DNA of 54,819 nucleotides from Abditibacteriaceae bacterium (GTDB lineage Bacteria > Armatimonadota > Abditibacteriia > Abditibacteriales > Abditibacteriaceae): the NCBI GenBank assembly GCA_031372065.1, contig JANMKN010000291.1, positions 1-54,819 on the forward strand, read 5' to 3'. Made by a program: the position numbers and the translations under genes. The notes beneath the pieces are model-generated. The model saw only the letters and a program-made list of their open reading frames with translations, did not search any database and was not told where the DNA came from. This document shows positions 1,005-41,136 of this stretch, one piece after another; the stretch's first letter is position 1; each line of letters opens with the position of its first letter.

Positions 1005-1250
1005 TTGGTGGTTTTCATCGCCGAGTAGGAAGTTTCGGCCCAAATGTTGGTCGTTTTTGCTGCCGGAGTGGTAGTTTTGGCCGAAGACTTGGTAGTTTCT
1101 GTTGCCGAGTAGGTAGTTTTACCTCCCGACATGGTAGTTTCGGCTGTCGGGCTGGTAGTTTTGCTTGCCGAGTTGGTAGTTTCGGCTCCCGACTTGGTAG
1201 TTCTGGCTCAGGAATTGGTAGTTTTCGTTGGCGAACAGGCAGTTTTTAAA
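1005..1250. repeat. 21-bp-period degenerate tandem array #1 (~12 units, core TTGGTAGTTT)
   Basis: Units start at 1005, 1026, 1047 ... 1236 with no indels, e.g. ttggtagtttctgttgccgag, ttggtagtttcggctcccgac, ttggtagttttcgttggcgaa. Confidence 0.95.
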
Positions 1251-1252
1251 CC

Positions 1253-2197
1253 ATGAGACTTGTTTTTATGGGCACGCCCGCTTTAGCGGTGCCCTGCCTT
1301 GATGTTTTGCGCGAAGATCACGAAATCGCGCTGGTCGTCACGCAACCGGATAAACCCGCCGGGCGCGGCAATAAATTGGCGCCTTCGGCAGTAAAAACGC
1401 GCGCGATTGAACTCGGTTTACCCGTTGCCCAACCCGAAAAGGCGCGCGAGGCAGCATTTTTAGAAGAATTGCGCGCCACGCGGCCCGAAGGCATCGCGGT
1501 GGTGGCTTACGGACAGATTTTGCCGAACGCCATTTTGGAAATGCCGCTCGAATTTCATCCGCACGGCGGTTGCGTCAATTTGCATTATTCGTTGCTCCCA
1601 CGCTGGCGCGGCGCGGCGCCGGTGCAGCACGCGCTCTTAAACGGCGACAAAATCACTGGCGTGACGTGTCAGCACATGGCGCAAAAACTCGATGCGGGCG
1701 AGATTATTTTGCAGAGAGAAGTGCCAATTTTGCCGGACGAAACCACCGGCGATTTATGGCAGCGCCTGACGCCCATTGGCGCCGACGCATTGCGCGAGGC
1801 CATGAAAATGCTCGAAGCCGGAAGCGCGCCGCGCATGGTGCAAGATGAAGCGCAAATCACTTACGCCTCTATGCTTTCCAAAGAAGATGGCCGCCTGAAC
1901 TGGAGCGATAACGCAGCAAATCTTCACAATCGCGCTCGCGCCGTCAATCCGTGGCCGGGGGCGTGGTGCGAATACCAAGGCGAAGTGCTTAAAATCTGGC
2001 GCACGCAAGTTTTGGAAGGCAATTACGGCGGCGCCATTCCCGGCGCGATTTTAAAAGTCGAAGACGAAGCGATGTGCGTGCAAACCGGCGACGGCATTTT
2101 GCGCCTTTTAGAAGTGCAAGCGGCAGGCAAACCGCGCATGAATCCCGCCGCGTGGGCACGCGGCCACCATGCCGGTAGTGGAAAAAAATTCGATTAA
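1253..2197 (+). CDS. fmt: Methionyl-tRNA formyltransferase
   Basis: MRLVFMGTP, VVTQPDKPAGRG, VVAYGQIL and HYSLLPRWRGAAP motifs. Confidence 0.97.
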   Translation: MRLVFMGTPALAVPCLDVLREDHEIALVVTQPDKPAGRGNKLAPSAVKTRAIELGLPVAQPEKAREAAFLEELRATRPEGIAVVAYGQILPNAILEMPLEFHPHGGCVNLHYSLLPRWRGAAPVQHALLNGDKITGVTCQHMAQKLDAGEIILQREVPILPDETTGDLWQRLTPIGADALREAMKMLEAGSAPRMVQDEAQITYASMLSKEDGRLNWSDNAANLHNRARAVNPWPGAWCEYQGEVLKIWRTQVLEGNYGGAIPGAILKVEDEAMCVQTGDGILRLLEVQAAGKPRMNPAAWARGHHAGSGKKFD

Positions 2198-2205
2198 GGC
2201 ACATT

Positions 2206-3084
2206 ATGAAACTGAGCGAAGAACAAGTGCAAGCCTTTCGCGAAGAAGGCGTTGTTGTCGTGGAACACGTTGTCGCGGACGACGATTTGGTGCCGTTGAT
2301 TGCCGCTTATGAAAATTGGATTGATCGCCGCGCGTGGGATTTGAAAGAAGCAGGCGAAATTCGCGATTTGCACGAAGACGAACCTTTTGAAAAGCGCGTC
2401 GGTTTGCTTTACGAGCAAACGCCACACATCACCGATGGTCTCGACATCATGCAAGCGCGTTTGCCGCAGATGTTCGATTTTCTGCACAACGAACATCTGC
2501 TCGATGCCGTTGAATCGCTAATCGGCCCCGAAATCACTTGCTCGCCGATTCAACATATTCGCGCCAAGCCTCCAGCGAAGGCATCCGGCACTGGTGCGGG
2601 CTTTTTCAATGTGCCGTGGCATCAAGATTCAGGCGTGACATGGGACGAAGCGGACAATTCGGAAATCGTTACTTGCTGGATGGCATTGGTGGATGCGACC
2701 ATCGAAAACGGCTGCATGGAAGTGTTGCCCGGCGCGTGGAAGCGGGGGCATCTCACGCATCAAGCCGAAGGCGGCACGACGATTCGCCCCGATTTGATGC
2801 CAGAAATCACGCCGCGTCCGGTTCCGGTCAAAAAAGGCGGCATCGTTTTCATGCATCGCCACACGCCGCACCGTTCGACACCGAACTTTTCCGACCATGT
2901 GCGTTGGAGTCTCGATATGCGCTTCCAACCGGCAGGCACGCCAACGGGCCGCCCCTTTCATCCCGATTTTATCGCGCGCAGCGAATCGAATCCCAACAGT
3001 GTTTTGACCGATTGGGCGATTTGGGATCAAATGTGGGCCGAGGCTTTAGCCAAGCCAATGCCAACAGCGCATCGTGTGAAATAA
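2206..3084 (+). CDS. Phytanoyl-CoA dioxygenase (PhyH) family Fe(II)/2OG dioxygenase
   Basis: PWHQD (HxD), W.ALVDATIENGCM.V.PG, distal H-R-S-x-x-N and RWSLD.R. Confidence 0.9.
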   Translation: MKLSEEQVQAFREEGVVVVEHVVADDDLVPLIAAYENWIDRRAWDLKEAGEIRDLHEDEPFEKRVGLLYEQTPHITDGLDIMQARLPQMFDFLHNEHLLDAVESLIGPEITCSPIQHIRAKPPAKASGTGAGFFNVPWHQDSGVTWDEADNSEIVTCWMALVDATIENGCMEVLPGAWKRGHLTHQAEGGTTIRPDLMPEITPRPVPVKKGGIVFMHRHTPHRSTPNFSDHVRWSLDMRFQPAGTPTGRPFHPDFIARSESNPNSVLTDWAIWDQMWAEALAKPMPTAHRVK

Positions 3085-3085
3085 G

Positions 3086-4285
3086 ATGAATGCAAAATTT
3101 TCGTTTTCACAGCTTTTCGCGGCGCTTTTCCTTGGTGTGGTTTCTTATGCTTCGCAGGCCAATCAAACGATGTGGAATCTCGACCAGCTTTCGCAAGCGC
3201 CGAAAACGTATCCCGCGCCGGAGTGGAAAGAAGCCGGAATTGAGGCCCTATTTTACGAGACATTGCCGTGGAAAGGCCAGCCGACGCGCGCGTTTGCGTG
3301 GATAGGAATGCCCGAACACGCACCCGGCGAAAAAGTGCCCGCGATGGTTTTGGTGCATGGCGGCGGTGGCACTGCTTTCGCTGATTGGGTTCGTTTGTGG
3401 ACAAAACGCGGCTACGCGGCGATTGCGATGGACACTTGCGGAAGTCTGCCGGGCGGCGAGCATGGCAAGCGTCCGCGCCACGAATTTGGCGGCCCGCCGG
3501 GTTGGGGCGGTTTCGACCAAATTGACGGGCCAATTGAAGACCAATGGACATATCACGCTGTCGCCGATGTCATTTTGGCGCACTCGCTTTTGCGCTCACA
3601 GCCCGAAGTGGATGCCAATCGCATTGGCATCACCGGCATTTCGTGGGGCGGTTATTTAACGTGCATTGTGGCGGGCGTAGACAATCGTTTTCAATTTGCC
3701 GCGCCGGTTTATGGCTGCGGTTTTCTCGGCGAAAATTCGACGTGGAAAGGCGCACTGGACGGCATGAAAGAGCGCGGCCAAACGTGGCTGAAACTGTGGG
3801 ATCCGTCGGTTTATTTGCTCGACGCCAAAATGCCGTTTTTGTGGGTGGATGGCACCAACGATTTCGCGTATCCGCTGGATTCGGTGCAGAAATCTTATCG
3901 CGCCGCGCCGGGAACGGACACGCTTTGCACCAAACTGCGAATGCCGCACGGCCACGGCGGGCCGGGCGAAAATCCCGAAGAAATTCATGCCTTTGCCAAC
4001 ACCTTTCTAAAAGGCGGCGCACCGCTGGCGAAAATCGAAAAGTCAGGTCACGACGACAAAACTGCGTGGGCCACTTTCACAGCGCAAACGCTGATTGTTA
4101 AAGGTGAATTGCTTTATACCAAAGCCTCAACCGGCCCTTGGCATGAGCGTTTGTGGGAAACCGCGCCCGCGCCAATCGAAAACAACAAAGCCAGCGCACC
4201 TTTACCCGATGGCGCAGTAGCGTGGTTTTTTAATCTCACTGACGAGCGCGGTTTAATCGTCAGTAGCGAGATGGAGCAAAGGTAA
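3086..4285 (+). CDS. Secreted alpha/beta hydrolase (acetylxylan-esterase-like)
   Basis: Signal peptide; VLVHGGGG oxyanion loop; GISWGG nucleophile elbow. Confidence 0.85.
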   Translation: MNAKFSFSQLFAALFLGVVSYASQANQTMWNLDQLSQAPKTYPAPEWKEAGIEALFYETLPWKGQPTRAFAWIGMPEHAPGEKVPAMVLVHGGGGTAFADWVRLWTKRGYAAIAMDTCGSLPGGEHGKRPRHEFGGPPGWGGFDQIDGPIEDQWTYHAVADVILAHSLLRSQPEVDANRIGITGISWGGYLTCIVAGVDNRFQFAAPVYGCGFLGENSTWKGALDGMKERGQTWLKLWDPSVYLLDAKMPFLWVDGTNDFAYPLDSVQKSYRAAPGTDTLCTKLRMPHGHGGPGENPEEIHAFANTFLKGGAPLAKIEKSGHDDKTAWATFTAQTLIVKGELLYTKASTGPWHERLWETAPAPIENNKASAPLPDGAVAWFFNLTDERGLIVSSEMEQR

Positions 4286-4305
4286 TCGTAGACAGTTCAA
4301 TCTCT

Positions 4306-5769
4306 TTAAGCCGCTGGCCCCAATGTAATGAAGGCGACGGATGGGCTTTGCAGCGTTAGCGAAAGCAGATTCCATTCGCCCAATTGCGCGCCGTCGTTGA
4401 CTGGCGTCAATTCGTGTTTTTCGTCCACAAGGCGCACCGATTGAATGGCGGCTTTGGGCCACGGCAAACCTTCCAATTTAAGGCGAAGCGGGTTTTGCAC
4501 TGCGATATAATTGCTCACCAAAATGCTGGCTGTTTTTCTATCGGTGGCGAGTCCGGCAGCGACAGCAAAGCCACTTGGCACCGCGCCGCTGACATGAGCG
4601 CGTTCGGGCGTATCCAGCAAGCGGCGAAAGGCCAACATTCCAAAGTAATTTTTGTAGGGCACGCCGCTTTCATCGAATAATCCCCATCCGCCCTGCTCGC
4701 CATGAAAAAACGTGGCGCCGTCAACGGGCGCATCTTGCAAGCCGATTAACACTGCCGCGTTATAAGCCGCCGCTTCGGGGCCAACCATGCGTTCATACCA
4801 GCGCTGGCGCACTTTCGCATCGGCAGTGCGCGAAATCGGCCCCCAATCCCAATCGGGAATACAGCGCCATTCGTCCAAGTAGCTTTCCGCTTTTTCAAAG
4901 CCATATTCGTTCAGCATCCGGCGAATATGATGGGCGCGTGTGGGCAGTTCATTGGGATTATTATGAGCCGAATAACAATGCCACGAGAAAAAATCGAGTG
5001 GTAATTTTTCGCGCTGACAGGTTCCCAGAAAACCGGTCAAAATCGCCGATGGTTTCAATTGGTCGCCCATTAAATCGCCAGTGATGCCGATGCCGGGGCC
5101 ACCAATCATCAAATTGGGAAACGCGGCTTTTAGAGCGCGCGAAACAACCGTGTAAAAGGCGAAAAACTGCTCATCGGTGCCTGTCCATTGGGCCGGACGC
5201 GTTTCCGGCTCGTTCCAAATCTCCCAGCGGCGAATGCCATATTGAAAACCGTTGGCCCAACCTTCGTTGTAATGCCGTATGATGCCTTTGGCGGCCTCGG
5301 CCCAGCGCGCCGGGTCTTTGGGCGGGTTGACAAAACGCTTAATCGTGGTGTGTTCGATGGTTTCGCCCAGACGAAACAAAATCTCCGAACCCGTTTCCCG
5401 AATCGCCGCGATATATTCATCGGTCATGGCGAAATCGTAGTTTTCAGGTTTCGATGGGTCGGCATTCGGGTCGGGAAAAACGACGTGCATATCCACCACG
5501 TCAGGAATCGGCCAATGGCAATCGTGCGTGCGTGTCAGCGGCACGCCCAGTTCGCGATGCGCCGCGATGACATCCACCAAACCGCCCGCTCCCAGCGGCC
5601 CTTTATTGACACCCTGCAAAGCCTTAAAGCGGCTGACCGGCGTGCGAAAATCAACGATAGGCGCCTCGGTTTCTGCCGCCGCTGCCGAACGTGCAATTAA
5701 ATTCGTCGGCACCGCTGCCAATGCTGTTACACCCGCCACTTGTTTTAAAAACTTTCTGCGATTGCTCAT
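4306..5769 (-). CDS. Tat-exported GH39-like glycoside hydrolase
   Basis: SNRRKFLK Tat motif; WEIWNEP acid/base; DFFSWHCY; LDEW nucleophile region. Start could be 5781. Confidence 0.8.
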   Translation of the reverse strand: MSNRRKFLKQVAGVTALAAVPTNLIARSAAAAETEAPIVDFRTPVSRFKALQGVNKGPLGAGGLVDVIAAHRELGVPLTRTHDCHWPIPDVVDMHVVFPDPNADPSKPENYDFAMTDEYIAAIRETGSEILFRLGETIEHTTIKRFVNPPKDPARWAEAAKGIIRHYNEGWANGFQYGIRRWEIWNEPETRPAQWTGTDEQFFAFYTVVSRALKAAFPNLMIGGPGIGITGDLMGDQLKPSAILTGFLGTCQREKLPLDFFSWHCYSAHNNPNELPTRAHHIRRMLNEYGFEKAESYLDEWRCIPDWDWGPISRTADAKVRQRWYERMVGPEAAAYNAAVLIGLQDAPVDGATFFHGEQGGWGLFDESGVPYKNYFGMLAFRRLLDTPERAHVSGAVPSGFAVAAGLATDRKTASILVSNYIAVQNPLRLKLEGLPWPKAAIQSVRLVDEKHELTPVNDGAQLGEWNLLSLTLQSPSVAFITLGPAA

Positions 5770-5777
5770 TTTGTTTT

Positions 5778-6046
5778 TCAATTATCCTTTTTCCGTTGCC
5801 TCATCAAACTTCCAATCAGCGCAATACCCATGAGGGCAAAAAGAATCAGCGTCGCCAAAATCCCAATCGGCGTGCGCGCATTATTGGAAAGTGCAATCAG
5901 CAGAATATCCAGAGACGACATAGGCCCCGAATAAATAGGCCCACCAGCATAAGCCATAATCCAACGTGGCACAATGACCACAGAAACATTGTGCCCGCAA
6001 AGAGTAAGACACTGGCTAAGGCCAGAAACATTTGCAAGATTTTCAC
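5778..6046 (-). pseudogene. Small membrane protein, possibly split by a frameshift near 5985
   Basis: A hydrophobic N-terminal part in one frame (GTG 6046, KILQMFLALASVLLFAGTMFL) and a hydrophobic C-terminal part in another (5981-5778). Confidence 0.3.
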
Positions 6047-6060
6047 AAAATCATCTCAAC

Positions 6061-8529: not shown

Positions 8530-8566
8530 GTATGTTCCTGATTGTCCTTGATGTTGCAGCGGAGTT

Positions 8567-10301: not shown

Positions 10302-10450
10302 TATAGCGCTTAACGGATTGCAGGCTACAACAGGCGGAGCTAACGCTCTCTTCCAAACAAGGTGTTCCCTTTTAATTTTCGACTGCCCGTTTGGAAGAGG
10401 GCGCAGCCCCGCTTATGTGATTTGTAGCCAACAATCCGTTAAGCGCTATA
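10302..10450. mobile_element. 149-bp foldback element with 19-bp perfect terminal inverted repeats (MITE-like or structured RNA)
   Basis: TATAGCGCTTAACGGATTG (10302-10320) pairs with CAATCCGTTAAGCGCTATA (10432-10450); inner stems GGCTACAA/TTGTAGCC and CTCTTCCAAAC/GTTTGGAAGAG. Confidence 0.6.
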
Positions 10451-10451
10451 A

Positions 10452-10496
10452 TAAAGAGAAAACGCGCAGGGAGGATTCCCTTCGCGTTTTCGTTTT
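10452..10496 (-). terminator. Intrinsic terminator after the 126-aa orphan gene
   Basis: GAAAACGCG-c-AGGGA...TCCCT-t-CGCGTTTTC hairpin at 10458-10491 with T-rich flanks on both strands. Confidence 0.7.
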
Positions 10497-10515: not shown

Positions 10516-10896
10516 TTACGGATTCGACGGTGTTGTTTGCCCGCCTTGTTGGGTCGGGCCAGTGATTTGATCCAGCAGGTCAACCTGCTCGGAGCTTTGC
10601 AGCAAGCCGCGCAGGGCTTTGAGCGCCGCTTGATTTTTCACATCTAACAAGTGGCCTTGCGCGTCCAGTTGCTCTAAAATGGGCTTGATTTCCTTGATGA
10701 GGTCATCCAGTTGCTTGACCAAATCTTTGAGGGTATTGGTCAGCGTGGTATAGCCCGCCATTTCGATGCCCGGCAAGTTTTGAAACGCAGTGTTCAACTG
10801 TGCCATGACGCTGAGTGTGTCCACCGCGCGACGGATGAGTTCATTGATTTCCCAATCCGTAAACTTGCGGTCATAATCTACAAAAATGTCTGCCAT
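10516..10896 (-). CDS. Hypothetical alpha-helical / coiled-coil protein (126 aa), array-associated
   Basis: ATG at 10896 preceded by AGGAGAAAAGGACG RBS; amphipathic helix LTNTLKDLVKQLDDLIKEIKPILEQLDAQ. Confidence 0.8.
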   Translation of the reverse strand: MADIFVDYDRKFTDWEINELIRRAVDTLSVMAQLNTAFQNLPGIEMAGYTTLTNTLKDLVKQLDDLIKEIKPILEQLDAQGHLLDVKNQAALKALRGLLQSSEQVDLLDQITGPTQQGGQTTPSNP

Positions 10897-11005: not shown

Positions 11006-11299
11006 CAGTCACTTTTTGAGAAAATTCACGGCACTTTGCGGAAAAGTGACTGCACTTTGGCAAAAGTTGAGTCAACTTTCTCCAAAGTTGACTCACCTTT
11101 TTGCTTTAGGCACCCAACTTTGCCCAAAGTTGACTCACCTTTTTGCCTTAGCCACTGACTTTTCGCCAAAGTGCCGTGCCTAAAACCCAAAAGTCAGTGA
11201 CATTTGCCCAAAAGTGTGTGCCTTCGGCCTTTTTAGACGTGTTCTCTACCCAAAAAGAGGGTATTTCCCCCTAAAAACGCCCCAAATTCCCTCTTAACG
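11006..11299. repeat. 21-bp-period degenerate array #2 (~14 units, often with ACTTT-N4-AAAGT dyad)
   Basis: Units such as gactgcactttggcaaaagtt, gagtcaactttctccaaagtt, cacccaactttgcccaaagtt; perfect dyad GAGTCAACTTT-ctcc-AAAGTTGACTC at 11069-11094. Confidence 0.9.
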
Positions 11300-11355
11300 G
11301 GTAGATTTACTGCCTTTCCTATACGGTCAACGCGAAATCGGGCTTGCAACAGACA

Positions 11356-11384
11356 TTTTTACTATTCAGAACCGCCGCTGTCAA
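11356..11384 (-). promoter_or_regulatory. Candidate sigma70 promoter reading into array #2
   Basis: TTGACA-N17-TAAAAA on the minus strand; the -10 is imperfect. Confidence 0.4.
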
Positions 11385-11439: not shown

Positions 11440-11964
11440 TCAGGATTTCTTATCCTCTTCCGTCATTGGATGCAACAGAGTCATAAACTCATCGAAGGAA
11501 TCGGCAATGGGATAGAGATTGGAATAATCATAAGGGGCAGTCGCCCTATCTGAAAGCCAAAAGTGAATGGTGCCTTTGCGTGGCCCATCTAAAAATATAC
11601 ATACTTGATTCCCCGCACGGTCACATGCAATGGGTAACAATTCGGGAGCGATGACCATGTTATTCAAGTCACCTTGGTAGCACAGTAGCAAATCCAAGGT
11701 CGAGCCGATTTTGAACCCATAAAACATACCTAAGGACGCAGAAGTCACCAAGTCAGGACGGCGTTGAATGGGATAATAAACTCCGAAGAACGTATAGCCA
11801 CTGAACTTTTTGAGAAATTCGCGATAATCCATTGGCAAAGAATAGCCAATAGATTGCTCAAATGCTTGTAACTCCTCTTCGGACAAAAGGACGGGTTGTT
11901 GTCCTATCCCAACTGAATAGGACTCTCCCGCCAATTCTTCAATTCTTTGCCAGTAGCGATTCAT
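11440..11964 (-). CDS. SMI1/KNR4 (SUKH) family immunity protein, copy 3
   Basis: LSEEELQAFEQSIGYSLPMDYREFL; LLPIACDRAGNQVCI; IADSFDEF. Confidence 0.9.
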   Translation of the reverse strand: MNRYWQRIEELAGESYSVGIGQQPVLLSEEELQAFEQSIGYSLPMDYREFLKKFSGYTFFGVYYPIQRRPDLVTSASLGMFYGFKIGSTLDLLLCYQGDLNNMVIAPELLPIACDRAGNQVCIFLDGPRKGTIHFWLSDRATAPYDYSNLYPIADSFDEFMTLLHPMTEEDKKS

Positions 11965-11981
11965 GTCGAATTACGCACTTT

Positions 11982-12518
11982 TTACTTCGACCGGCGTTGT
12001 TCCTCTTCAGTTATCGGATGTAACAAATGCAAGAACGCCTCGAACGAATCAGAGATCGGGTAAAGATACGAATAATCAAGACGATTCACAGCGTCTTCGC
12101 TGTAAAACAAATGCACACTGCCTTTCTTCTCACCATCCAAAAACAGGCAGATCGCATCGAAGCCGCCACCCTCATCTGTAATTGGCAGCAACTCCGGCCC
12201 GATGAGTTGTTCATCTACATAATTATGATACCGCGTCAGCAAATCCATCATCGAAGAAAAAGGAAATATTCCGTAAAAGGTGTCAACGGCACCGAGAGTT
12301 CGTCCATCCGGTATGTTTGCAAGGCGATAAACGATCTCATTAATAAACCCGTAACCACCAAACTCCTTGAGGAACTCACGATAGTCGTCTGGCAACGCAT
12401 AGCCAATCGTCTCCTCAAATGCCTTGAGTTGCTCTTCCGAAAGCGTGACATTGGGTTGTTTCTCTGTGTGAAGAAAACGCCCACCCAACTCAGCTACTCG
12501 TTGCGCATATCGATTCAT
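11982..12518 (-). CDS. SMI1/KNR4 (SUKH) family immunity protein, copy 2
   Basis: LSEEQLKAFEETIGYALPDDYREFL..GG; LLPITDEGG; ISDSFEAF. Confidence 0.9.
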   Translation of the reverse strand: MNRYAQRVAELGGRFLHTEKQPNVTLSEEQLKAFEETIGYALPDDYREFLKEFGGYGFINEIVYRLANIPDGRTLGAVDTFYGIFPFSSMMDLLTRYHNYVDEQLIGPELLPITDEGGGFDAICLFLDGEKKGSVHLFYSEDAVNRLDYSYLYPISDSFEAFLHLLHPITEEEQRRSK

Positions 12519-12535
12519 GGGAAATCACTCCACTT

Positions 12536-12577
12536 TCACTTTGCCAACTGTTCAATCGCTTCGGCTAATTGCAAGCG
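12536..12577 (-). repeat. Relic duplicate of the 3' end of the upstream large gene (RLQLAEAIEQLAK*)
   Basis: Matches 13135-13176 (RLQLAEAIEQLMT*); 29/33 nt identical over 11 codons and all differences synonymous. Confidence 0.9.
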
Positions 12578-12592
12578 TTAGACGCGAATTAT

Positions 12593-13120
12593 TCAACCTT
12601 GTCGCTTTTCCTCGTCATTTATTGGGCGTAACATTTGGATGAACTCATCGAACGAATCAGCGATGTGATACAGATTCGAGTAGTCGTAAGGAAAATCGAA
12701 TTCCTCTTCGTAAAACAGATGGACAGTGCCCTTTTTGTCACCGCCCAAAAACAAACATATAGGGTCGTGGTCGCCGCCTTCATCCATAATTGGCAATAGT
12801 TCTGGCCCCATCAACTCATTGTCTACAAAGCTGTGATGCCGCATTAGTAGATCAAATGGTGAAGAGGCGATAACACCGTAAAATGTGCCAACTCCCCACC
12901 ATGTTCGCCGATCTGGCATATTTGCAAAAGAAAATACGGTATCCCAAAAACCATAACCACCATAGTCCTTGAGAAACTCTCGATAGTCTTCTGGTAGGGG
13001 AAAACCAATCTCTTTTTCCAATTTTTGGAGTTGTTCTTCTGAGAGTGTGACGGGCTGTGTCCATCCCTTACCAGAGAAAACTCCTCCTAATTCAGCAACG
13101 CGCTTTTCGTATTTGTTCAT
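12593..13120 (-). CDS. SMI1/KNR4 (SUKH) family immunity protein, copy 1
   Basis: MNKYEKRVAELGG; LEKEIGFPLPEDYREFLKDYGG; IADSFDEF. Confidence 0.9.
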   Translation of the reverse strand: MNKYEKRVAELGGVFSGKGWTQPVTLSEEQLQKLEKEIGFPLPEDYREFLKDYGGYGFWDTVFSFANMPDRRTWWGVGTFYGVIASSPFDLLMRHHSFVDNELMGPELLPIMDEGGDHDPICLFLGGDKKGTVHLFYEEEFDFPYDYSNLYHIADSFDEFIQMLRPINDEEKRQG

Positions 13121-13134
13121 GTGAGATTCACCTT

Positions 13135-32326: not shown

Positions 32327-32369
32327 TTTCATCCGATTAAACCGCCAAATTATCGTGTAATTGCCTATC

Positions 32370-32398
32370 TTGACCTTGCTTTTCGCCTCCGCTATAAT
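32370..32398 (+). promoter_or_regulatory. Near-consensus sigma70 promoter upstream of array #3
   Basis: TTGACC (32370-32375) - 17 bp - TATAAT (32393-32398). Confidence 0.75.
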
Positions 32399-32488
32399 TC
32401 TCATCAATTTTCCCTGAATCGTGCGCCCGGAGGGGCGAAATAGGGCGTTCTGAGCGTAAAACGTCCTCGGCAGAAGCGAAAAACCGCA

Positions 32489-32761
32489 CGGCATTCAGCG
32501 ATTTGCCATCGGCTTTCAGCGAAAGCCGACGACATTTCAGTAATCGCCGATGATATTTCGGTGAAAGCCGATGATATTTCAGCGATTTGCCATCGGCTTT
32601 CGGTAACTGCCGATGATATTTCGGTGAGCGCCGACGATATTTCGGTGAGCGCCGCGCGGCTTTTGATAAATGCAAGTCGGCTTTCGCTGATTGTAGGTCG
32701 GCTTTTAGTGATAGATGAACGGTTTTCTCTTAATGCAAAGCGGCATTTGACCGCTCGCAGG
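32489..32761. repeat. 21-bp-period degenerate array #3 (13 units)
   Basis: cggctttcagcgaaagccgac, gatatttcggtgaaagccgat, gatatttcggtgagcgccgac etc.; TCGGCTTTC-agc-GAAAGCCGA is a perfect 21-bp palindrome at 32509-32529. Confidence 0.95.
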
Positions 32762-32777
32762 ATATAAAAGGAGATGT

Positions 32778-33416
32778 ATGTCAGATTTTCCCCGTGAACG
32801 GGCCAAGATTTTGGAGTTGGTCCAACATTTTATCAGCGGCATGAGCGAACCGACTCATGTCAGCGCCTTTACCAATTCGCCGGTGACGGTAGCGCAACTC
32901 AATACCGCTATTGACGGCACAGCAACCACGCTTAACGCACGGCAACTCGCGCAATTTGCGCTCGATAACGCCATCACCGACGATCAAGAGGCGATTGACG
33001 TCCTCATCGCCTTGATGCAGCAGATCATTAGCTTTGCCCGTGAAAAAGAGAAAACTGTCCCCGAAATTCTCCACTGGCTTAACTACCAAGAAAGCGAACC
33101 GAACCTCTTGCCGCCCGGTATGTGTCGCCACTTTGAATTAGTCAAGCGCACGCCGGGACTTTTGCATCTCGATTGGAAAGGCCCCAAATTCGGCACCGAT
33201 ATATCCGAGGGCGAAGGCGGACGCGCCAAATATTACGAAGTGGTGTGGCGCGAAAATCCCACGCAAGATTGGAAAGTTGTCTCCATCGCTTTACTCAGCG
33301 AAGCGCAAATTTCGCTGGCCCAATGGACGACAGGCACCACCTTTGAAATCAGCGTGCGCGGCGTCAATAAACAAGACGCTGGCATCGTCGCACCCTCCAT
33401 TACGATTGTGGTGTAA
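32778..33416 (+). CDS. N-terminal helical domain plus fibronectin type III-like domain protein, array-associated
   Basis: AAGGAG RBS; FP..F..SPVT..L helical N-terminal part; FN3 pattern PPG...LDWKGP...YEVVWR...FEISVRGVN; no signal peptide. Confidence 0.85.
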   Translation: MSDFPRERAKILELVQHFISGMSEPTHVSAFTNSPVTVAQLNTAIDGTATTLNARQLAQFALDNAITDDQEAIDVLIALMQQIISFAREKEKTVPEILHWLNYQESEPNLLPPGMCRHFELVKRTPGLLHLDWKGPKFGTDISEGEGGRAKYYEVVWRENPTQDWKVVSIALLSEAQISLAQWTTGTTFEISVRGVNKQDAGIVAPSITIVV

Positions 33417-33433
33417 AACAGCCTCTGCACAGA

Positions 33434-33473
33434 AAAAGGCACAAAGAGTTACGCTCTTTGTGCCTTTTGGTTT
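33434..33473. terminator. Bidirectional intrinsic terminator
   Basis: AAAAGGCACAAAGAG-ttacg-CTCTTTGTGCCTTTT, a 15-bp perfect stem between convergent genes. Confidence 0.85.
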
Positions 33474-33493
33474 TGCGGAGCGCTCACTAACCC

Positions 33494-36400
33494 TCACTCC
33501 ACCAAACGCGCGTTTTTGATTTTGTAGCTGGTGCCCAGCGCGTTGCTGCCGAAACCAAGCAGGCGATATTCATCGCCGTGCAAAGCGCCGAGCGTGAGGG
33601 CGTCCACTTTCCATTCGGCAGCGTTGGGATAGCGTTTTTGCAGCGCCGCGCCTAAATTAATGGTCACTTTTTGCCAACTGCCGGGCATATCTTGTATCGT
33701 GGCGATTTGCTTGACATCACCGAGCGATTGCACCCGCGCGTCGCGTTCGGCGTCGGCTGTCAGCGGCAGAAAATTCATGTCATCGCCGATGGTGGCATAG
33801 AAATCAACTTTCGCGTTGCCGGGTTGCCATTCCCATTCGAGTTTGGTTTGCGGCGTGACGGTTACCGGATTATAACCTTCCGGCGAAGTGCCGGGTTTGA
33901 CCAAATCAACGGCGAACGTGCCCCCCGCTGTCGGATTGCTCACCGTCCAGATGCCTTCGGCGCTGTCGAGACTGGCGGACGGCAAATCGTCGGTCATTTC
34001 GGGGCGCGGCAAAAGCGCGCCGGGGCCGGACGCGACTTCGGCAGGGCCGGGCACGGCGGCATCAAGCAAACCCGATGGCAAAGTTTTCAGGCCCATCGAA
34101 GCGCTTTCGATTTTGGCGCGGGCGATCATCATGGCGCTGTCCACCGTCCAAAAGGCGACTTGCCCGCCGGTTTTCACCAGCGGCAGCGGGTCGGCGTCGA
34201 AGTATTCCATCAATTTGGTGTCGTCCACGCTGAGGCGCAATAATACGCCCGCCTGACCGTTTTGTGTGGCACGACGTGCTTCGGCGCGAATGTAAAACCA
34301 GCGCTTGTGGAAACTCAAGTTCTGATTCATCGGTTTTTCAAAACGCGCGTTTTCGGTTTCGTTGATCGCCACTTGCTGCGTGCCCTTGAGGATTTTGCTG
34401 ATGGTGTTGTTCCAACCCGCCACCACAAACGAATAGCCGGACGAGGGATTTTTGCCGTCGCCGAGCATGGTGATATTCAGGTTGCCCGGATTGGAATAGC
34501 CAATTTCTTTGGGCAAGTCCATTTGGTTGTTGGCGTAGATTTCCACCACCGTATCAAGGCCGTAACTGCGTTTGCTCCACAAAATCGGACTCTTGCCTTT
34601 GCCGCCGAAAAACGACCAGTCGGAATAGCAAGGCCAGCGCGAAATCACGGCCCAGTTGCCTTGCACCGAATACCAGTCGGTGGGCGCTTCGGTGAAGGTG
34701 TAATCGTCGCGATTGGCGCTAAAAGCACGAATGTCGCGGGTGCGCACAATCGAACCCGTTGAACGCGCCGCGAAGTGCGTGCCCTGCGGCACAGCTTCGG
34801 CTTCATCGGCGACATAACTCATCACCGGCTTGTCGCTGACATACAACAAAATGCCGCGTCCTTCGAGATTGACTTTCAAAGGCACGCCGGTCAGCGCTGT
34901 GGTTTCTTCTGTAGCCGCAGGCGTGCCGGCAGGAGACGCATCGGGGACTTCAATCAGACTTTTCGGACTGAGGTCAGCCTTTTTCAAGGTAGCAGCGCCA
35001 TGCAGCAGCGTGACTCGCACGCCGGTTTGCTTGCCCAAACCTTCCAAACGCAACACATAACCGCTATCGAATTTGCCTTTTTCGGCGCGCAACGCGAATT
35101 CGAGTTTCTGACCTTCGGCGGTAGCGCGGCGCCAGCGATATTCGAGCGAGGCATCGCCGAAAAATTCGCCGGTGTTCCAAAATTCGCGCAGGCCGGAATC
35201 GCCGGTGACCGTCGGCCATTCGCCAGCGGGCGAGGCCCAGCCGACCATCAACGCATCTTCGGCCATTTTGGGCGCGACTTTGGTCGGTTCAGGCGGCGGC
35301 GGGAAAAACATCACCGGATCGCGATATTGCGTGGTCGTAAGGCCTTGTGCATAAACACCTGGACGGCCCGGCGTGATGTCTTCATCGGCGCGCTGCGCGA
35401 TGAGTTTATCGCCGACATAAACGGCAAAAGCGCCCGGCACCACGCGCATTCGCACCGGCACAAAACCATCGGGCGAGGCGGCATTGAAAAGCGCTACCGG
35501 CTCGTCGCGCACGATTTGCGCTTTGCCGCCGCGAAAAGTCAGAATCTGCTGCCGTCCTTTATAAGGCAGGGCGCTTTTTTCGCCCGCCCAGCGAAAAACG
35601 GTGTAGTTTCCCGTATCGCGATAGCCCGCGACGATGCCCGCCGCGCCGCCATCGCCAGAGCGCGCCGCCACGCTGAAATCGTAACTGGGCCAATCGCTGC
35701 GCCCCGTCAAATAAACGCGCGTGGCGCCTTTGTCTTCTTTGGTCGGCGAGGAGGCCAAGGTGCCGCTTTCGTTGCCCGCCAACGGTGCCCAACTGCCGCC
35801 CACTTCTTCCCACGCGCCGCTGACAGCGCCGGTGAAATCAAGGCGATAATAATCGTAAGAACGCACGCGCAAATCATCAAAGTTGGCAGCGGCCATGTTT
35901 TGCGCAATCAGGCCCACGCCGCCCTGCCCAAACGAATCGTCGCGCACCTTAAAAACCAACGCGCCATCAATAAACGCTTCCACAAAGCCGGGCGAAGTCC
36001 GCACACCAAGGCGATACCATTGGCGCGGCAAAAAAGCGCCGGGCGCGCGGTCTATAATTGTCGCTTTGCCATCTTCCACGCGCACTAATTGGCGCGCTTG
36101 CGGGCCTTCAGTGGCGTTCCAAGTGAAAGCCAAATAATTTTTCGCGTCTTGAATATAAACAGCCAGACCAATCGCGCCGCGCCCGGACGGACGCACCGAA
36201 ATCTGCGCCTCGTAGTTGTCCCAAAAACGCGATTTTTTCGGCTCGATATAAGCCAGTGCCGCTCCGGTTGGCGTTTCGGCCAAATACGAAAACGGATTGG
36301 CGCTCATTTCGACGTTTTTCTGCGAAATGTTGTCGGTGGTGGCGGTCAGCATCCATTTGCCGCCGCTGTTTTGCCAATCATTGCCTTGTCCGGCGGCGCG

Positions 36401-36877
36401 GGTGTAATCGTCGTTATAAAAAATCTGCTGTTCAACGGGCTGCACACGCGGCTCTGTCCATTTCCAACCGGCGCTCGCCAAACTGCCGATGCGCCCTTTG
36501 GTGAGATTACCATCGTAAGCCGTCAAAATCACGCGCCTGTCCACAAGAACTTGCATTGCCCACGGACGGCGCTTGATCGTTACTTTGGGATTGGGCGACC
36601 AATCTAATTTCGCCGTCGCCAAACGCTGTGGCTGGCCTTTGATAACAGCACGCAACGCCGCCGAATCGGGCATCAGTTCCAGCGAATAAAAGTTGAGATT
36701 ATCCTGCCAGTCGAAAACCACCGTCAACCCGCCGCGCGCCTGCGTTTGCAGGTTGAACGACACGTCCACATGAGGCTCGGCCTCGTCGTCGAGGAATTCA
36801 TACGTCGCTGCCCGCGCACTAAACGGCGCCAGCAGCAGCAATCCAAAAACAGCCAACAAAAATTTCAATCGTCGCAT
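33494..36877 (-). CDS. Large secreted protein with repeated LamG/DUF1080-like beta-sandwich domains
   Basis: Signal peptide from ATG 36877; repeated W..Y....V / GxVGL / FDD.RV motifs. Confidence 0.75.
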   Translation of the reverse strand: MRRLKFLLAVFGLLLLAPFSARAATYEFLDDEAEPHVDVSFNLQTQARGGLTVVFDWQDNLNFYSLELMPDSAALRAVIKGQPQRLATAKLDWSPNPKVTIKRRPWAMQVLVDRRVILTAYDGNLTKGRIGSLASAGWKWTEPRVQPVEQQIFYNDDYTRAAGQGNDWQNSGGKWMLTATTDNISQKNVEMSANPFSYLAETPTGAALAYIEPKKSRFWDNYEAQISVRPSGRGAIGLAVYIQDAKNYLAFTWNATEGPQARQLVRVEDGKATIIDRAPGAFLPRQWYRLGVRTSPGFVEAFIDGALVFKVRDDSFGQGGVGLIAQNMAAANFDDLRVRSYDYYRLDFTGAVSGAWEEVGGSWAPLAGNESGTLASSPTKEDKGATRVYLTGRSDWPSYDFSVAARSGDGGAAGIVAGYRDTGNYTVFRWAGEKSALPYKGRQQILTFRGGKAQIVRDEPVALFNAASPDGFVPVRMRVVPGAFAVYVGDKLIAQRADEDITPGRPGVYAQGLTTTQYRDPVMFFPPPPEPTKVAPKMAEDALMVGWASPAGEWPTVTGDSGLREFWNTGEFFGDASLEYRWRRATAEGQKLEFALRAEKGKFDSGYVLRLEGLGKQTGVRVTLLHGAATLKKADLSPKSLIEVPDASPAGTPAATEETTALTGVPLKVNLEGRGILLYVSDKPVMSYVADEAEAVPQGTHFAARSTGSIVRTRDIRAFSANRDDYTFTEAPTDWYSVQGNWAVISRWPCYSDWSFFGGKGKSPILWSKRSYGLDTVVEIYANNQMDLPKEIGYSNPGNLNITMLGDGKNPSSGYSFVVAGWNNTISKILKGTQQVAINETENARFEKPMNQNLSFHKRWFYIRAEARRATQNGQAGVLLRLSVDDTKLMEYFDADPLPLVKTGGQVAFWTVDSAMMIARAKIESASMGLKTLPSGLLDAAVPGPAEVASGPGALLPRPEMTDDLPSASLDSAEGIWTVSNPTAGGTFAVDLVKPGTSPEGYNPVTVTPQTKLEWEWQPGNAKVDFYATIGDDMNFLPLTADAERDARVQSLGDVKQIATIQDMPGSWQKVTINLGAALQKRYPNAAEWKVDALTLGALHGDEYRLLGFGSNALGTSYKIKNARLVE

Positions 36878-36974
36878 GAGAAATCGTGAATAGTCAATCG
36901 TGACACTACCAAACCAATCGGCCCGCCTTTTGACAGAAAGCAGCCATAACGGTTCCGACGAAGGCCAAAAGAGA

Positions 36975-37010
36975 GGAACCACGAATGGACACAGAGGTAT
37001 CCGTGGTTCC
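36975..37010. repeat. Short REP-like palindrome
   Basis: GGAACCACG...CGTGGTTCC in the divergent intergenic region. Confidence 0.5.
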
Positions 37011-37151
37011 AAATTCTTAAGGAACATCCATTTGCTATGCGAAACATCAAAAGGGCCGAACGTGTGTTTAACTTATTGAAGGCCCAAAACAAGTGGCCCC
37101 GATTACTTTTCAAATCGCGCTGCACTCACACGCGATTTTTGATGTTTCACT

Positions 37152-38417
37152 ATGCTTTCAGCAGACGAGAAAAGGCAACAGGAACGGCTTCGCGCTCGCA
37201 ATTTCGTGTTCTGGACGCTCGCGGTTTCGGTGCTGTTGCATGGCGCGCTATGGGCGGCTTCCCATCTGGTTCCGCTGCGTGATGTCGCCCGCGAAACGCT
37301 TATTCAAGTCACGTTAGCCCCCGCGCCCACCAAAGCGCCACGCCGTTTGGCGGCGAAACCGCGCCCCACGCCACCAGCCAAAATCACACGACCAAAACGC
37401 GCGAAACGATTTGCGAAAATTCACCCAAAAACCACTCGGAGCGCGGCGCGGCGCAAAGCCACCGTGCCACATCTCAAAGCACAAGCGACGTCCCGCTCCG
37501 CGCCTGCTCCGAGACTGGATCCACTGCATTCGACAAGTAGTCAACGGGCAAGGGAGCCTTATAAATCGGGGTCGCCAGCGAGAAATTTATCGCCGTCACG
37601 GGCCTTCATCCGCAATAATCCATCGCCTTCAGCCGCGCCAATTCGCTTTGGCGAAATCGCCAATTCGCCTCTTGCCCCTTTGCCAGTTGGCAACGGAATC
37701 AGCGGGAGAAGAACAATACGCGGCACGCGGCGCCCCGGCAGCGGTTTTGAAGTGTCTTTGCCGTCAAACCCGTCCGGTGCAGCGCATCCGACGGATTCCA
37801 ACAATGCTCCGCGCCCCACAGGTTTGCAAGGCGATGGAAGCCGCCCCTCGTTGCCCACTGCAACAAGTGCAACGGGCAGCGGACGCATCACGCGCGGGCC
37901 GCGCACCGACACGTCGCAGCCATCGTTGCAGCCCGCCATGCCGCGCCTAACGCCGCACGGCGAAGAAGCAAGCGACGAGATTCCTGCTCCACAAAGCAGC
38001 ACGCCGCGCAACACGCGAATCGCGCGGCACACAAAGGGCGACGAACCCGAATTATTCCCCACACCCACACCGCGCCCTGCGCCAAAAGAAAATCCCCAAC
38101 CAGCGCCAGAGCCGCAACCCGAACCAAAGCCAGAACGCGAATTATTTCGCCCCGCCAAAGTGCGCTCGTCGCCCAAACCCGAATATCCATCCGAGGCCAA
38201 AGCAAAAAATCAGGAAGGCACCGTGGTCGTGCGCTTGCAAATCAGCGATGAAGGCCGCGTGACGGATGCCTCGCTTGTTTCGAGCAGTGGCGTTTCCTCT
38301 TTAGATGAAGCCTCGCTGCGCGGCGTGCGCCGTTGGACTTACGAACCGGCACGGCGCGGCAAAACTCCGGTTTCTTCGTCGCTCACAGCGCGCCTGCGCT
38401 GGCGCCTCACCGATTGA
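37152..38417 (+). CDS. Energy transducer TonB family protein
   Basis: SVLLH TM anchor; long Pro-rich linker; PEYPSEAK...EGTVVV...SSG...LD..W.YEPA TonB C-domain. Confidence 0.88.
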   Translation: MLSADEKRQQERLRARNFVFWTLAVSVLLHGALWAASHLVPLRDVARETLIQVTLAPAPTKAPRRLAAKPRPTPPAKITRPKRAKRFAKIHPKTTRSAARRKATVPHLKAQATSRSAPAPRLDPLHSTSSQRAREPYKSGSPARNLSPSRAFIRNNPSPSAAPIRFGEIANSPLAPLPVGNGISGRRTIRGTRRPGSGFEVSLPSNPSGAAHPTDSNNAPRPTGLQGDGSRPSLPTATSATGSGRITRGPRTDTSQPSLQPAMPRLTPHGEEASDEIPAPQSSTPRNTRIARHTKGDEPELFPTPTPRPAPKENPQPAPEPQPEPKPERELFRPAKVRSSPKPEYPSEAKAKNQEGTVVVRLQISDEGRVTDASLVSSSGVSSLDEASLRGVRRWTYEPARRGKTPVSSSLTARLRWRLTD

Positions 38418-38421
38418 ATTT

Positions 38422-38862
38422 ATGGTTGACCTCGCCACTTTCGTTCGCCCCGTTTCCACCGAAGAAACCTATCCGCTGCGCCTCAAAATTCTGCGTCCCG
38501 GACGGCCCTTAAACACCGCGCAATTCGCCGAAGATGAGCGCGCCACACACTTTGGCTGCTTTGTCAGTGAAAATCTCATTGGCGTCGCCACACTTTTCGA
38601 GCAACCGCTCAAAGATGATTCGCGCCTCGCTTTTCAACTGCGTGGCATGGCGATTGACGACGATTATCAAGGGCGCGGCTACGGTGAACAATTAGTGCGC
38701 GCCTGCTGCGATTTCGCGCGCGAACATGCAGCAAACCTCATCTGGTGCAACGCCCGCATCGAAGCCAGCCGTTTTTATTTAAAACAAGGATTTGCTATTC
38801 ACGGCGAGCCATTTCTCATCCCCGATGTCGGCCCGCATTATGTCATGTGGCGCGTTTTATAG
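38422..38862 (+). CDS. GNAT family N-acetyltransferase
   Basis: LRGMA...QGRGYG; WCNAR..A..FY.K.GF. Confidence 0.9.
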   Translation: MVDLATFVRPVSTEETYPLRLKILRPGRPLNTAQFAEDERATHFGCFVSENLIGVATLFEQPLKDDSRLAFQLRGMAIDDDYQGRGYGEQLVRACCDFAREHAANLIWCNARIEASRFYLKQGFAIHGEPFLIPDVGPHYVMWRVL

Positions 38863-38933
38863 CGATTTGGTTTAAAACTTTGCGCGTTTGGTTGTAGCGA
38901 CAACTCATGGCAAAAAGTAACCTAAGATGACTA

Positions 38934-40808
38934 ATGGACAAGTTACACCAAGAGAAACATGATTTTGATGTGTGCGTTATCGGCGGCGGCATGGCCGGGC
39001 TGTGCGCGGCGATTGCTTCGGCACGAAACGGCGCAAAAACGGCGCTCGTTCATGATCGTCCGGTTTACGGCGGCAACGCTTCCTCGGAAGTGCGGATGTG
39101 GATTTGCGGCGCGCATGGCAAGCACAACAAAGAAACGGGGATTCTTGAAGAAATTCAACTGGAAAACCAATATTTAAATCCGTCACTCAATTACTCGGTT
39201 TGGGACAGCGTTTTGTATGGTAAAGCGCATTTTCAGCCGAATTTAACGCCGTTTCTCAATTGCTCGGTGTTTGATGCGCAAAGCGAAGGCAATCAAATCG
39301 CGCGCGTTAAAGCATGGCAAACAACTTCGCAAACTGTCCATGAAATTGGGGCCAAATACTTTGTAGATTGCTCCGGCGACAGCATTTTGGCGCCGCTTTC
39401 CAACGCCGAGTGGCGCAGTGGCCGCGAAGCGCGCCGTGAATTCCACGAGGACATCGAACCCGAATTCGCCGACGGCAAAACGATGGGCAACACCTTGCTC
39501 ATTCAGATTCGCCGCACGCAGGAAGCGCAGCCGTTTACACCGCCAACGTGGGCTTATAAATTCACGCATCCCGAAGATTTGCCGCATCGAATGCGCGGCG
39601 TGCAGGCACATAATTTCTGGTGGATTGAAATTGGCGGTCTGGATGACACCATCCGCGACGCCGAGCGCATCCGCGACGAACTGATGAAAATCGTTTACGG
39701 CGTGTGGGATTACATCAAAAACTACGCGCCGGAACGTGAAAGTGCCAAAGATTGGGCGATTGAATGGATTGGCAGTTTGCCCGGCAAACGCGAAAACCGG
39801 CGCTATGTCGGCGACCATATTCTCACGCAAAACGATATTCGCGCTGGTGGCGATTTTGACGACATTGTGGCGTATGGCGGCTGGAGCATGGACGATCATC
39901 ATCCGGCGGGCTTGTATTATCCCGGCCATCCGACGATTTTTCATCCGGCGCCTTCGCCTTATGGGATTCCCTATCGCAGTTTGTATTCGCGCAACATCGA
40001 AAACTTGCTCTTCGCCGGACGCAACATTTCCGTCACGCACGCCGCGCTTTCGTCCACGCGCGTCATGGCAACCTGCGCCATTATCGGACAAGCCGCAGGC
40101 ACCGCCGCCGCGCTTTGCACACAGCACAATTGCGCGCCGCGTTCTTTAAGCAGCGGCGAGCGCCTGCGCGAATTTCAAAGCACTTTAATGGACGACGATT
40201 GCTGGCTGCCCGGCCTAACAAGGCCCGTAGACGAGTTAGCAAACATAGCCAAATTATGCGCGGATGGAACCGGCGCGCCCTTGCTTTTGGACGGCCTTGA
40301 CCGTGACCGAGACGACGACGAACACGCGTGGAGCGGCCAAGTCAACAACGCCATCGAATATCGCTGGAACGAGCCGGTCAATTTAGCGGGTGCGCGTTTA
40401 GTCTTCGATTCCAATTTGGCCCACGCCAAGAAAATGGCCTGCACTTATCCGCAAAAAGGTGGGCGCAATGCGGTGCCCAATTCATTGATCAAAAGTTTTC
40501 GTTTGGAAACATTGGACGCGCGCAATCAATGGCAAACCGCTTATCAGCAAACCAACAATTATCAGCGCCTTGTGCAAGTGCCGCTGCGCGCCCCCACGCG
40601 CGGTTTGCGATTGGTGCCCGAAGCGACATGGGGCGCCAAAGAAGCGCGGATTTTCGCCTTCGAGCCAATGGCAAACTTCGTCGAAAAAATCCCCGTTGTT
40701 CCCAATGGCGCTCATTTCAGCACCATTGTCGCACGTCTTGACCCGCAAGACTTGGCCGCGCCCGAAAACGGCTTGGAAGCTGACGAAAAACCGCGCCATA
40801 GGGCATGA
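38934..40808 (+). CDS. FAD-dependent oxidoreductase
   Basis: DVCVIGGGMAG; GGNASSEVR; GKRENRR; AGRNIS.TH.A.SSTRVM. Confidence 0.9.
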   Translation: MDKLHQEKHDFDVCVIGGGMAGLCAAIASARNGAKTALVHDRPVYGGNASSEVRMWICGAHGKHNKETGILEEIQLENQYLNPSLNYSVWDSVLYGKAHFQPNLTPFLNCSVFDAQSEGNQIARVKAWQTTSQTVHEIGAKYFVDCSGDSILAPLSNAEWRSGREARREFHEDIEPEFADGKTMGNTLLIQIRRTQEAQPFTPPTWAYKFTHPEDLPHRMRGVQAHNFWWIEIGGLDDTIRDAERIRDELMKIVYGVWDYIKNYAPERESAKDWAIEWIGSLPGKRENRRYVGDHILTQNDIRAGGDFDDIVAYGGWSMDDHHPAGLYYPGHPTIFHPAPSPYGIPYRSLYSRNIENLLFAGRNISVTHAALSSTRVMATCAIIGQAAGTAAALCTQHNCAPRSLSSGERLREFQSTLMDDDCWLPGLTRPVDELANIAKLCADGTGAPLLLDGLDRDRDDDEHAWSGQVNNAIEYRWNEPVNLAGARLVFDSNLAHAKKMACTYPQKGGRNAVPNSLIKSFRLETLDARNQWQTAYQQTNNYQRLVQVPLRAPTRGLRLVPEATWGAKEARIFAFEPMANFVEKIPVVPNGAHFSTIVARLDPQDLAAPENGLEADEKPRHRA

Positions 40809-40842
40809 TTGCGGAACGTAAAATCAGAAGGCGTAATAGTGT

Positions 40843-41136
40843 TTTCGCGACGCGGAGATGCGATTTCTTGAGCCGGAGCATCAATTTCGCGACGCGGAGA
40901 TGCGATTTCTCAGCCCGGAGATCGATTTTCTTAGGCAGGAGCATTCATTTCTTGAGCAAGAGATGCGATTTCGCGGACAAGAGCGGGCATTTCGCGGGCA
41001 TGAGAGGGGTTTTCTGGGGCACGAGCAAGCATTTCTTGAGCAAGCGATCAGTTTTCTGGGGAAGGAGATGACATTTCTTGATGCGGAGCGGCATTTTCTG
41101 GGGTCGGAGGGTGAATTTCGGGGTGAGGCTCCATTA
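40843..41136. repeat. 21-bp-period degenerate array #4 (14 units, TTTC-N8-GAG-N6)
   Basis: tttcgcgacgcggagatgcga (twice, 42 bp apart), tttcttgagcaagagatgcga, tttctggggcacgagcaagca etc.; no indels. Confidence 0.95.

Follow-up and report, generated by a model that had tools for sequence, protein, structure and literature searches.

Tandem arrays of short, helically phased DNA units occur four times on a contig of an Abditibacteriaceae bacterium of the phylum Armatimonadota (GenBank assembly GCA_031372065.1, contig JANMKN010000291.1), which was analysed over its whole 54,819 nucleotides and is called the window here. The source genome (G000, 94% complete; C-numbers denote its contigs) carries many more such arrays. 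An array just 5' of an orphan gene for a helical protein is called a master, and an array without such a gene a solo. The window contains two of each, together with the following features.

641..979, plus strand: orphan open reading frame (ORF) of 112 amino acids between def and array 1, uncertain as a gene
1005..1250, no strand assigned: array 1, a solo of about 12 polar 21-bp units (dyad p=0.49) that stops 2 bp short of the fmt start
10516..10896, minus strand: orphan gene for a likely all-helical protein of 126 amino acids, family F (three copies in the genome, all with arrays)
11006..11299, minus strand: array 2, a master of palindromic 21-bp units (dyad p<0.005)
11355..11384, minus strand: sigma-70-like site upstream of array 2, 10/12 positions, consensus match only
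32370..32398, plus strand: sigma-70-like site upstream of array 3, 11/12 positions, 17-bp spacer, consensus match only
32489..32761, plus strand: array 3, a master with palindromic units in both orientations within one register
32778..33416, plus strand: orphan gene for a protein of 212 amino acids with a helical module (53-residue helix, residues 38-90) and a C-terminal FN3 domain, predicted to form an antiparallel homodimer
33421..33447, no strand assigned (listed on the minus strand): terminator-like hairpin that separates the helical-FN3 gene from a convergent large gene
40843..41136, no strand assigned: array 4, a solo of 14 units, largely polar, that separates two convergent genes (FAD oxidoreductase and EamA)

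A first-pass annotation of the window had described four arrays of one architecture, two tied to orphan helical-protein genes and two solo. All four are present, with 11.7, 14, 13 and 14 units (arrays 1 to 4), and arrays 2 and 3 are the gene-linked ones. Identity at lag 21 amounts to 0.62, 0.51, 0.60 and 0.60, as compared to a shuffled null of 0.25-0.28 with maxima of 0.34-0.40 (1000 shuffles each). At lags 20 and 22 it is 0.25-0.36, and the 21-bp register is therefore kept; no gain is seen at lags 7, 10 and 11 (0.22-0.33 at lag 7). The higher-order repeats of 42 and 84 bp noticed earlier were recovered by the program TRF, which gives periods of 42, 63 and 84 bp. The consensuses differ, as had also been observed: the arrays belong to four separate BLAST families, each with sister arrays on other contigs. 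Public contigs match positions 32508-39722 with one difference and 39775-41491 with none; since the best run may be the source sample, this match is not independent. Contigs from three public DNA sequencing runs provided no informative empty-site joint.

According to Pfam, the neighbours of the window arrays are chromosomal metabolic genes. Array 1 has sisters on C320 and C329, both solos, and no master gene was found for its family. No array precedes fmt in the 19 loci of relatives examined. Between def and fmt, two sister species lack both the 112-amino-acid ORF and array 1, so that ORF and array likely arrived by insertion. For arrays 2, 3 and 4, synteny in the genomes G001-G003 is lost beyond one flank, which limits exact empty sites to fmt and 19 other loci. 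The 126-amino-acid protein encoded next to array 2 matches no Pfam family and no NCBIfam family above cut-off, and an Atlas search gave no usable match. Three tandem SMI1/KNR4 (SUKH) genes are located just upstream of array 2 (11440-13138), and a REPIN-like inverted repeat at 10302-10455 recurs on at least six other contigs as well as between def and fmt in G002, a sister species. Array 3 has sisters on C285 and C317. Array 4 belongs to a BLAST family of 13 arrays, among them the masters C5:16321 and C395:2431 with family E genes. The EamA gene runs into the last four units of array 4, which supply some 28 additional codons and its stop, and no array follows the FAD gene in G001 or G002.

Across the genome, a first autocorrelation scan revealed 263 segments at lag 21 versus 0-45 at lags other than 42 and 63. 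A stricter caller yielded 477 arrays, 331 of which were retained after removal of 3- and 7-periodic, short and low-copy arrays. Their periods are 21 bp (223 arrays), 42 (41), 41 (36), 20 (14) and 22 (4); the 13 others are spread over periods with at most five arrays each, so other periods are not equally common. We count the class as the 318 arrays with periods of 20-22 and 41-42 bp, including at least one false positive (the period-41 array C351:2655, an integron promoter/attI region). They span 69.5 kb, about 1.1% of the genome, and interior arrays have a median of 230 bp or about 11 units. As 39 of the 318 stand at contig ends, the arrays also affect assembly. BLAST distinguishes at least 150 unit families in this one genome. 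The uncharacterised element class suspected from four arrays is thereby supported and extended: arrays form families of gene-linked master and solos, and periods other than 21 bp are allowed too.

The pitch of B-DNA is about 10.5 bp. The array periods thus equal two or four turns, which points to the geometry of duplex DNA. Significant dyads occur in 91 of 192 period-21 arrays and in 68 of 73 arrays of period 41/42. Both the periods and the many palindromic units are consistent with the phased protein-binding platform that had been proposed from the window. DNA bending by T-tracts would suit about half of the arrays and does not fit the rest: TTT/AAA is conserved in only 94 of 192 period-21 arrays, and a phased TTT tract is not a feature of the class. 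Strictness of register holds for the window arrays, but genome-wide 13 of 172 arrays contain a unit that fits better out of register. Exact inverted matches of at least 14 bp were found in 141 of the 318 arrays as compared to 23 in the control, the inverted segments staying within the tandem register. Variable unit positions, in variable parts of 8-13 bp, show a few recurring alleles rather than unique spacers. Near-perfect 7-bp tandem arrays constitute a separate class (C320:6171, C351:63313, C357:6693, C69:1393, C4:942, C405:13327).

Decayed genes for heptad peptides had been considered as well, and active ones would be a variant of this explanation. In arrays 3 and 4 alike, at least one reading frame is free of stops, and 10% of 272 solos, a set tallied before the 18 masters chosen by eye (see below) were reassigned, overlap a predicted gene by more than half. 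Against this, stops interrupt every one of the six frames in arrays 1 and 2, units are palindromic, and periods of 20, 22 and 41 are not multiples of three. Codon-phase bias is absent (0.100 observed versus 0.115 expected, n=192 period-21 arrays); the arrays are therefore not peptide relics, and translated coiled-coil genes with a third-position bias were not what was found. This explanation is largely refuted and retains next to no chance. The arrays are real, non-coding and apparently undescribed: in the open literature, covered at the level of titles and abstract openings, no published description of the array-gene pairing was found.

Masters comprise 46 arrays linked to their gene by hidden Markov model (HMM) and 18 chosen by eye among 99 neighbours on weak HMM scores and composition, 64 altogether. 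Clustering of the ORFs that lead away from arrays gave seven orphan protein families, helical by composition and in one case by model. The FN3 family divides into a short and a long form, and homology between the families is mostly weak. Searches of NCBIfam (17 proteins) and PADLOC (9 proteins) returned weak matches only, such as the PQLLE family at E=0.002, and none above a cut-off where this is defined. A profile search of 1.84 billion representatives was dominated by multi-FN3 proteins and little was gained; a plasmid search with P0160 gave no match, and in viral contigs 25 loci matched, mainly over the FN3 part. Three family E genes lack an array directly upstream (C95:5852, C94:10253, C135:23771), those on C94 and C135 having one 2-4 kb upstream.

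Linkage extends to promoters. By consensus match alone (threshold at least 10/12), 13 of 46 masters have a sigma-70 site between array and gene, compared with 0 of 46 in antisense and 6 of 338 in the control (p=3e-9), and in many masters the array abuts the -35 box. In 7 of 46 masters, arrays 2 and 3 included, a site lies upstream of the array; transcription through some arrays, such as these two, may occur because strong sites precede them. These upstream sites would suit arrays that act as RNA, as leaders, terminators or protein-bound repeat RNAs, and so would the position of solos at a median of 52 bp from a stop codon, often with inverted segments. An RNA of 21-nt units, one of the first suggestions, nevertheless finds little support. 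The strong promoter is usually placed between array and gene, downstream of the array as in the 13 masters mentioned, the periods fit the pitch of B-DNA, the variable positions show a few recurring alleles, and Rfam, applied to the window and 8 loci, matched no array and only a tRNA. We consider action as RNA very improbable. A tRNA gene is located at 52572-52644 of the window.

The protein encoded next to array 3 was modelled from an alignment, since a single-sequence fold was poor (predicted local distance difference test, pLDDT, 50). The model (pLDDT 87.7) consists of short helices, the 53-residue helix and the FN3 domain. As a homodimer it reaches an ipSAE of 0.71, the best of three controls being 0.00, with at least 75% of contacts common to the runs and a pLDDT of at least 85; this mark was attained by 20 of 30 solved homodimers and by 1 of 23 single chains. 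Predicted contacts join residue i with residue ~120-i, and the protein is predicted to be a two-fold antiparallel rod of about 8 nm with FN3 domains at its ends. Its long helix measures about 7.9 nm, as compared to 7.1 nm for 21 bp of DNA. Internal duplication of the module was detected by hhalign in the long FN3 form (96%) and in family D (98.6%); in families B and E none was seen at E<0.01.

The form of an array goes with the build of its protein. Masters with one module, judged by length (short FN3, A, F and G), have palindromic units in 16 of 19 cases, as against 5 of 18 masters in families B, D and E (B 0/5, E 1/5, D 4/8; p=8e-4). Masters in one family are related, so that this and the other p-values overstate. 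All nine long FN3 masters are palindromic with periods of 41/42 bp, and all six short FN3 masters have period 21; this split by period recurs in G004 and G015. Among short-form arrays in other phyla, 16 of 22 are palindromic. A strict rule that one module equals 21 bp was rejected, since family D has two modules yet period 20/21. That array symmetry follows protein build is expected if the encoded protein reads its array, and constitutes our main indirect evidence for binding. It also bears on the possibility that arrays are enhancer-like or operator platforms for a host factor (nucleoid protein, RNA polymerase or a regulator), the helical protein being only the regulated product. Contact with the -35 box in many masters, acidic proteins and conserved A/T tracts in half of the arrays all agree with such platforms. 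However, unit symmetry and period track the adjacent protein, solos carry inward sigma-70 sites in 4% of 226 cases and avoid divergent gaps, and with at least 150 unit families one sequence-specific host reader cannot serve all. A host-factor platform is improbable in our view.

Sister arrays were detected by BLAST for 36 of 46 masters. Exactly one master is present in 38 of the 80 families with several members, where permutation gives a mean of 28.3 (p=0.014), and more than one in 5. Solos are more frequent at convergent and less frequent at divergent gaps: 187 scorable solos comprise 112 tandem, 51 convergent and 24 divergent positions, while large gaps number 589, 120 and 235 (p=1e-7). Most pairs of master and solo have only the unit in common, their flanks being not above background. 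A clearly best register exists in 24 of 119 sister pairs, and 58 of 99 longer pairs are non-collinear yet have conserved columns in common. In a toy simulation on BLAST-selected pairs, the column correlation between sisters (rho 0.60) exceeds a neutral model (0.2-0.3) and lies below a column-constrained one (0.66-0.76).

The chief rival to an independent spread of arrays is that whole modules duplicate and afterwards lose the gene: array and gene would arrive or duplicate together, the gene would be deleted, and the array would persist by slippage as an inert solo. Consistent with this, solos on C211, C10, C19, C28 and C155 retain a flank in common with the master, up to promoter or ribosome-binding site (RBS); on C155 (16143), the gene-less sister of array 2 has a short 5' leader and some 45 bp of 3' trailer in common with it. 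A few genes are broken or truncated (C98, C351, C233), and some sister pairs are collinear at 85-97%. But tblastn with 64 master proteins detected coding sequence beside very few non-master arrays, even where flanks are about 86% identical, the exceptions being the truncated gene at C233 and a full-length gene 440 bp away at C212. Furthermore, non-collinear sisters keep conserved columns beyond the toy neutral model, and the copying of modules would be left unexplained. We judge passive relics unlikely, with a chance that is far from negligible.

Presence of the arrays is lineage-specific. G002 yielded one array in 1.2 Mb sampled of 5.3 Mb, versus 62 expected. In this sample 100 arrays of G000 had a flank and 19 had both, and none of the 19 sites carries an array in G002; the G000 gap is longer than the G002 gap at 16 of the 19, and 12 of the 19 G000 gaps are below 700 bp and could not hold both an array and its gene. 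Three genomes of the same genus (79-97% complete) yielded no helical-FN3 gene; it was found in 2 of 20 relatives and, in its short form, in 5 of 300 other genomes of the phylum. Six of these seven loci have 21 as top upstream period (0.44-0.70), and the seventh has an assembly gap there. Beyond the phylum, 46 loci from named genomes included 33 with near-full-length matches, 32 of them with enough upstream DNA. Upstream of the gene, 27 of the 32 carry a 21/42 array and one a 20/40 array; one has a 21-period signal downstream. These loci span Acidobacteriota, Verrucomicrobiota, Planctomycetota, Bacteroidota and Ignavibacteria. In 446 kb of flanks from other phyla no further array was present, versus about 18 expected at G000 density; spread is therefore lineage-specific. 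The master module has a wide, patchy distribution, and the burst of solos is particular to this lineage. Two genomes (loci L134 and L157) have a collinear, indel-free master array in common whose internal identity is low (0.52), indicating that a degenerate array can stay fixed across species.

MatP and its matS sites offer a comparison for a chromosome-bridging address system, in which each protein would tether its own master and solo sites. The excess of families with exactly one master, the column constraint common to sisters and the predicted two-fold rod dimer argue for such a system, whereas its distribution argues against it: three sister species lack helical-FN3 genes, G002 is nearly array-free, the short-form gene is confined to 5 of 300 other genomes of the phylum, and masters in other phyla have no solos nearby. 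An address system appears quite improbable.

How do the arrays relate to known systems? Plasmid iteron arrays (P1, F, R6K) and centromere or operator arrays (R1 parC, F sopC, omega) likewise repeat their sites at intervals of about two or four helical turns, adjoin a gene for a presumed reader and are likely autoregulatory, and the sites here have the 21-22 bp spacing of iteron origins. In contrast, the present arrays are chromosomal, among housekeeping genes, and form dozens of independent systems plus solos; a plasmid or phage replicon is not indicated, and the adjacent gene encodes a helical protein with FN3 instead of a Rep initiator. Rep, ParA/ParB/ParM and HTH/RHH domains are absent from the Pfam matches, and no Pfam family of a partition NTPase and centromere-binding gene pair lies beside arrays 2 and 3, the only masters whose neighbours were scanned. 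CRISPR arrays have a constant repeat with unique spacers, whereas here the whole unit is 21 bp with recurring alleles, and Cas families of Pfam are missing among the 47 window proteins. Heptamer arrays flanking four-helix-bundle genes are tandem repeats beside small helical orphan genes, with orphan copies elsewhere; they differ by their period of 7, and the window arrays have no 7-bp sub-period.

REPIN-RAYT systems consist of distinct single genes each tied to its own repeat family, with many gene-less extragenic copies and strong differences between close relatives (PMC3116915). The present arrays, too, are dispersed, extragenic and lineage-specific. They differ in being tandem arrays of 10-14 phased 21/42-bp sites, as opposed to inverted REP doublets or hairpins, in comprising at least 150 repeat families in one genome, and in their partner genes, which encode helical rods with or without FN3 rather than HUH/Y1 transposases. 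No Y1 transposase matched in the 15 master proteins scanned, and the seven Y1 matches of the genome are other genes. The cyanobacterial small dispersed repeat (SDR) SDR5 is described as inserting at HIP1 sites in Nostocaceae, and SDRs resemble our arrays in being very small dispersed mobile repeats without an encoded transposase (PMC5861425). Unlike them, the present arrays are long, tandem and tied to cognate genes, and a common target was not seen. In summary of these likenesses, the arrays resemble iteron and centromere arrays in geometry and REPIN-RAYT in population structure, yet by comparison of their features belong to neither, nor to CRISPR.

Integron cassettes differ as well: the attC family of the genome is unmatched on the window contig, and attC-like sites are gene-distal of some other masters. 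A dispersed repeat of about 110 bp, with an attC-core-like start and a terminator-hairpin end, is found 0.5-1.5 kb gene-distal of several masters and separated from them by a variable cargo gene (C365:500-1990, C19, C28, C16, C53, C404, C277, C271, C125, C369). An array lies within 3 kb upstream of 18 of its 54 matches, a count that includes both hairpin strands, versus 14% of random intergenic points. On C365 the arrangement is like that of a mini-integron in which the helical-FN3 gene takes the position of intI. A complete integron is present at C351:77-3902 (intI 2874-3902, attC cassettes), attC clusters occur on C109 and C2, and the genome has 23 attC-like matches.

We favour the reading that helical proteins bind their own arrays and that arrays spread without the gene as selfish, REPIN-like copies, and give it about an even chance of being right. 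A master array, as a set of non-coding, helically phased sites, would bind many copies of the rod protein encoded downstream. Homodimers would read palindromic 21-bp units; two-module chains would read polar 21-bp units when single and palindromic 41/42-bp units when paired as dimers. Coating of the array would autoregulate the gene, as iteron and centromere arrays do. Such cognate binding is probable. In the weakest step, bridging of like arrays by the protein would favour gene conversion or template switching, which would copy arrays without the gene, flip units in register and keep the family profile common. Array-only spread through bridging and host recombination is conceivable, and we would lean a little against it.

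Several observations weigh against binding and gene-less spread. Linkage alone could carry symmetry and period along with the gene, and the relatedness of masters that inflates the p-values has been mentioned. Family D combines two modules (98.6%) with period 20/21 and dyads in 4 of 8, and families B and E count as two-module by length because no internal repeat was detected. Many master proteins are acidic, with charges of mostly -3 to -19 in the long form and of -7 to -8 in family F. Fold searches with the array-3 model recovered FN3 as sole match and barely probed the helical module. No master was found in 37 of the 80 multi-member families. The solos that retain a master's promoter or RBS flank in the absence of the gene fit duplication followed by gene loss equally well, and the conserved columns were judged by a toy model on selected pairs. 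Termini or target duplications were absent from the pairs inspected. No mobilising enzyme was found, and RVT_1 (PF00078) had no match in the 94%-complete genome, where divergent reverse transcriptases could escape. Finally, the flanks in other phyla are devoid of the further arrays expected at G000 density.

Taken to its full extent, the reading of cognate binding and array-only spread would describe a new selfish element class without nuclease or transposase, in which modular rod proteins read a two-turn, 21-bp code (palindromic where homodimers read it, polar for pseudo-dimers of one chain, and of 42 bp with doubled modules), coat their own array and bridge like arrays, host recombination seeds gene-less copies over the chromosome, and more than 60 protein-site pairs are orthogonal; in this form it is doubtful. 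If the proteins read their own arrays, they would constitute a widespread, undescribed family of sequence-specific DNA binders built as an antiparallel helical rod with an optional FN3 domain. One genome would then provide more than 60 natural protein-site pairs, and a cross-binding matrix could yield a recognition code and orthogonal repressors. The pattern of master plus solos would be the second case, after REPIN-RAYT, of repeat populations maintained by single partner genes, with no recognisable enzyme in the present one.

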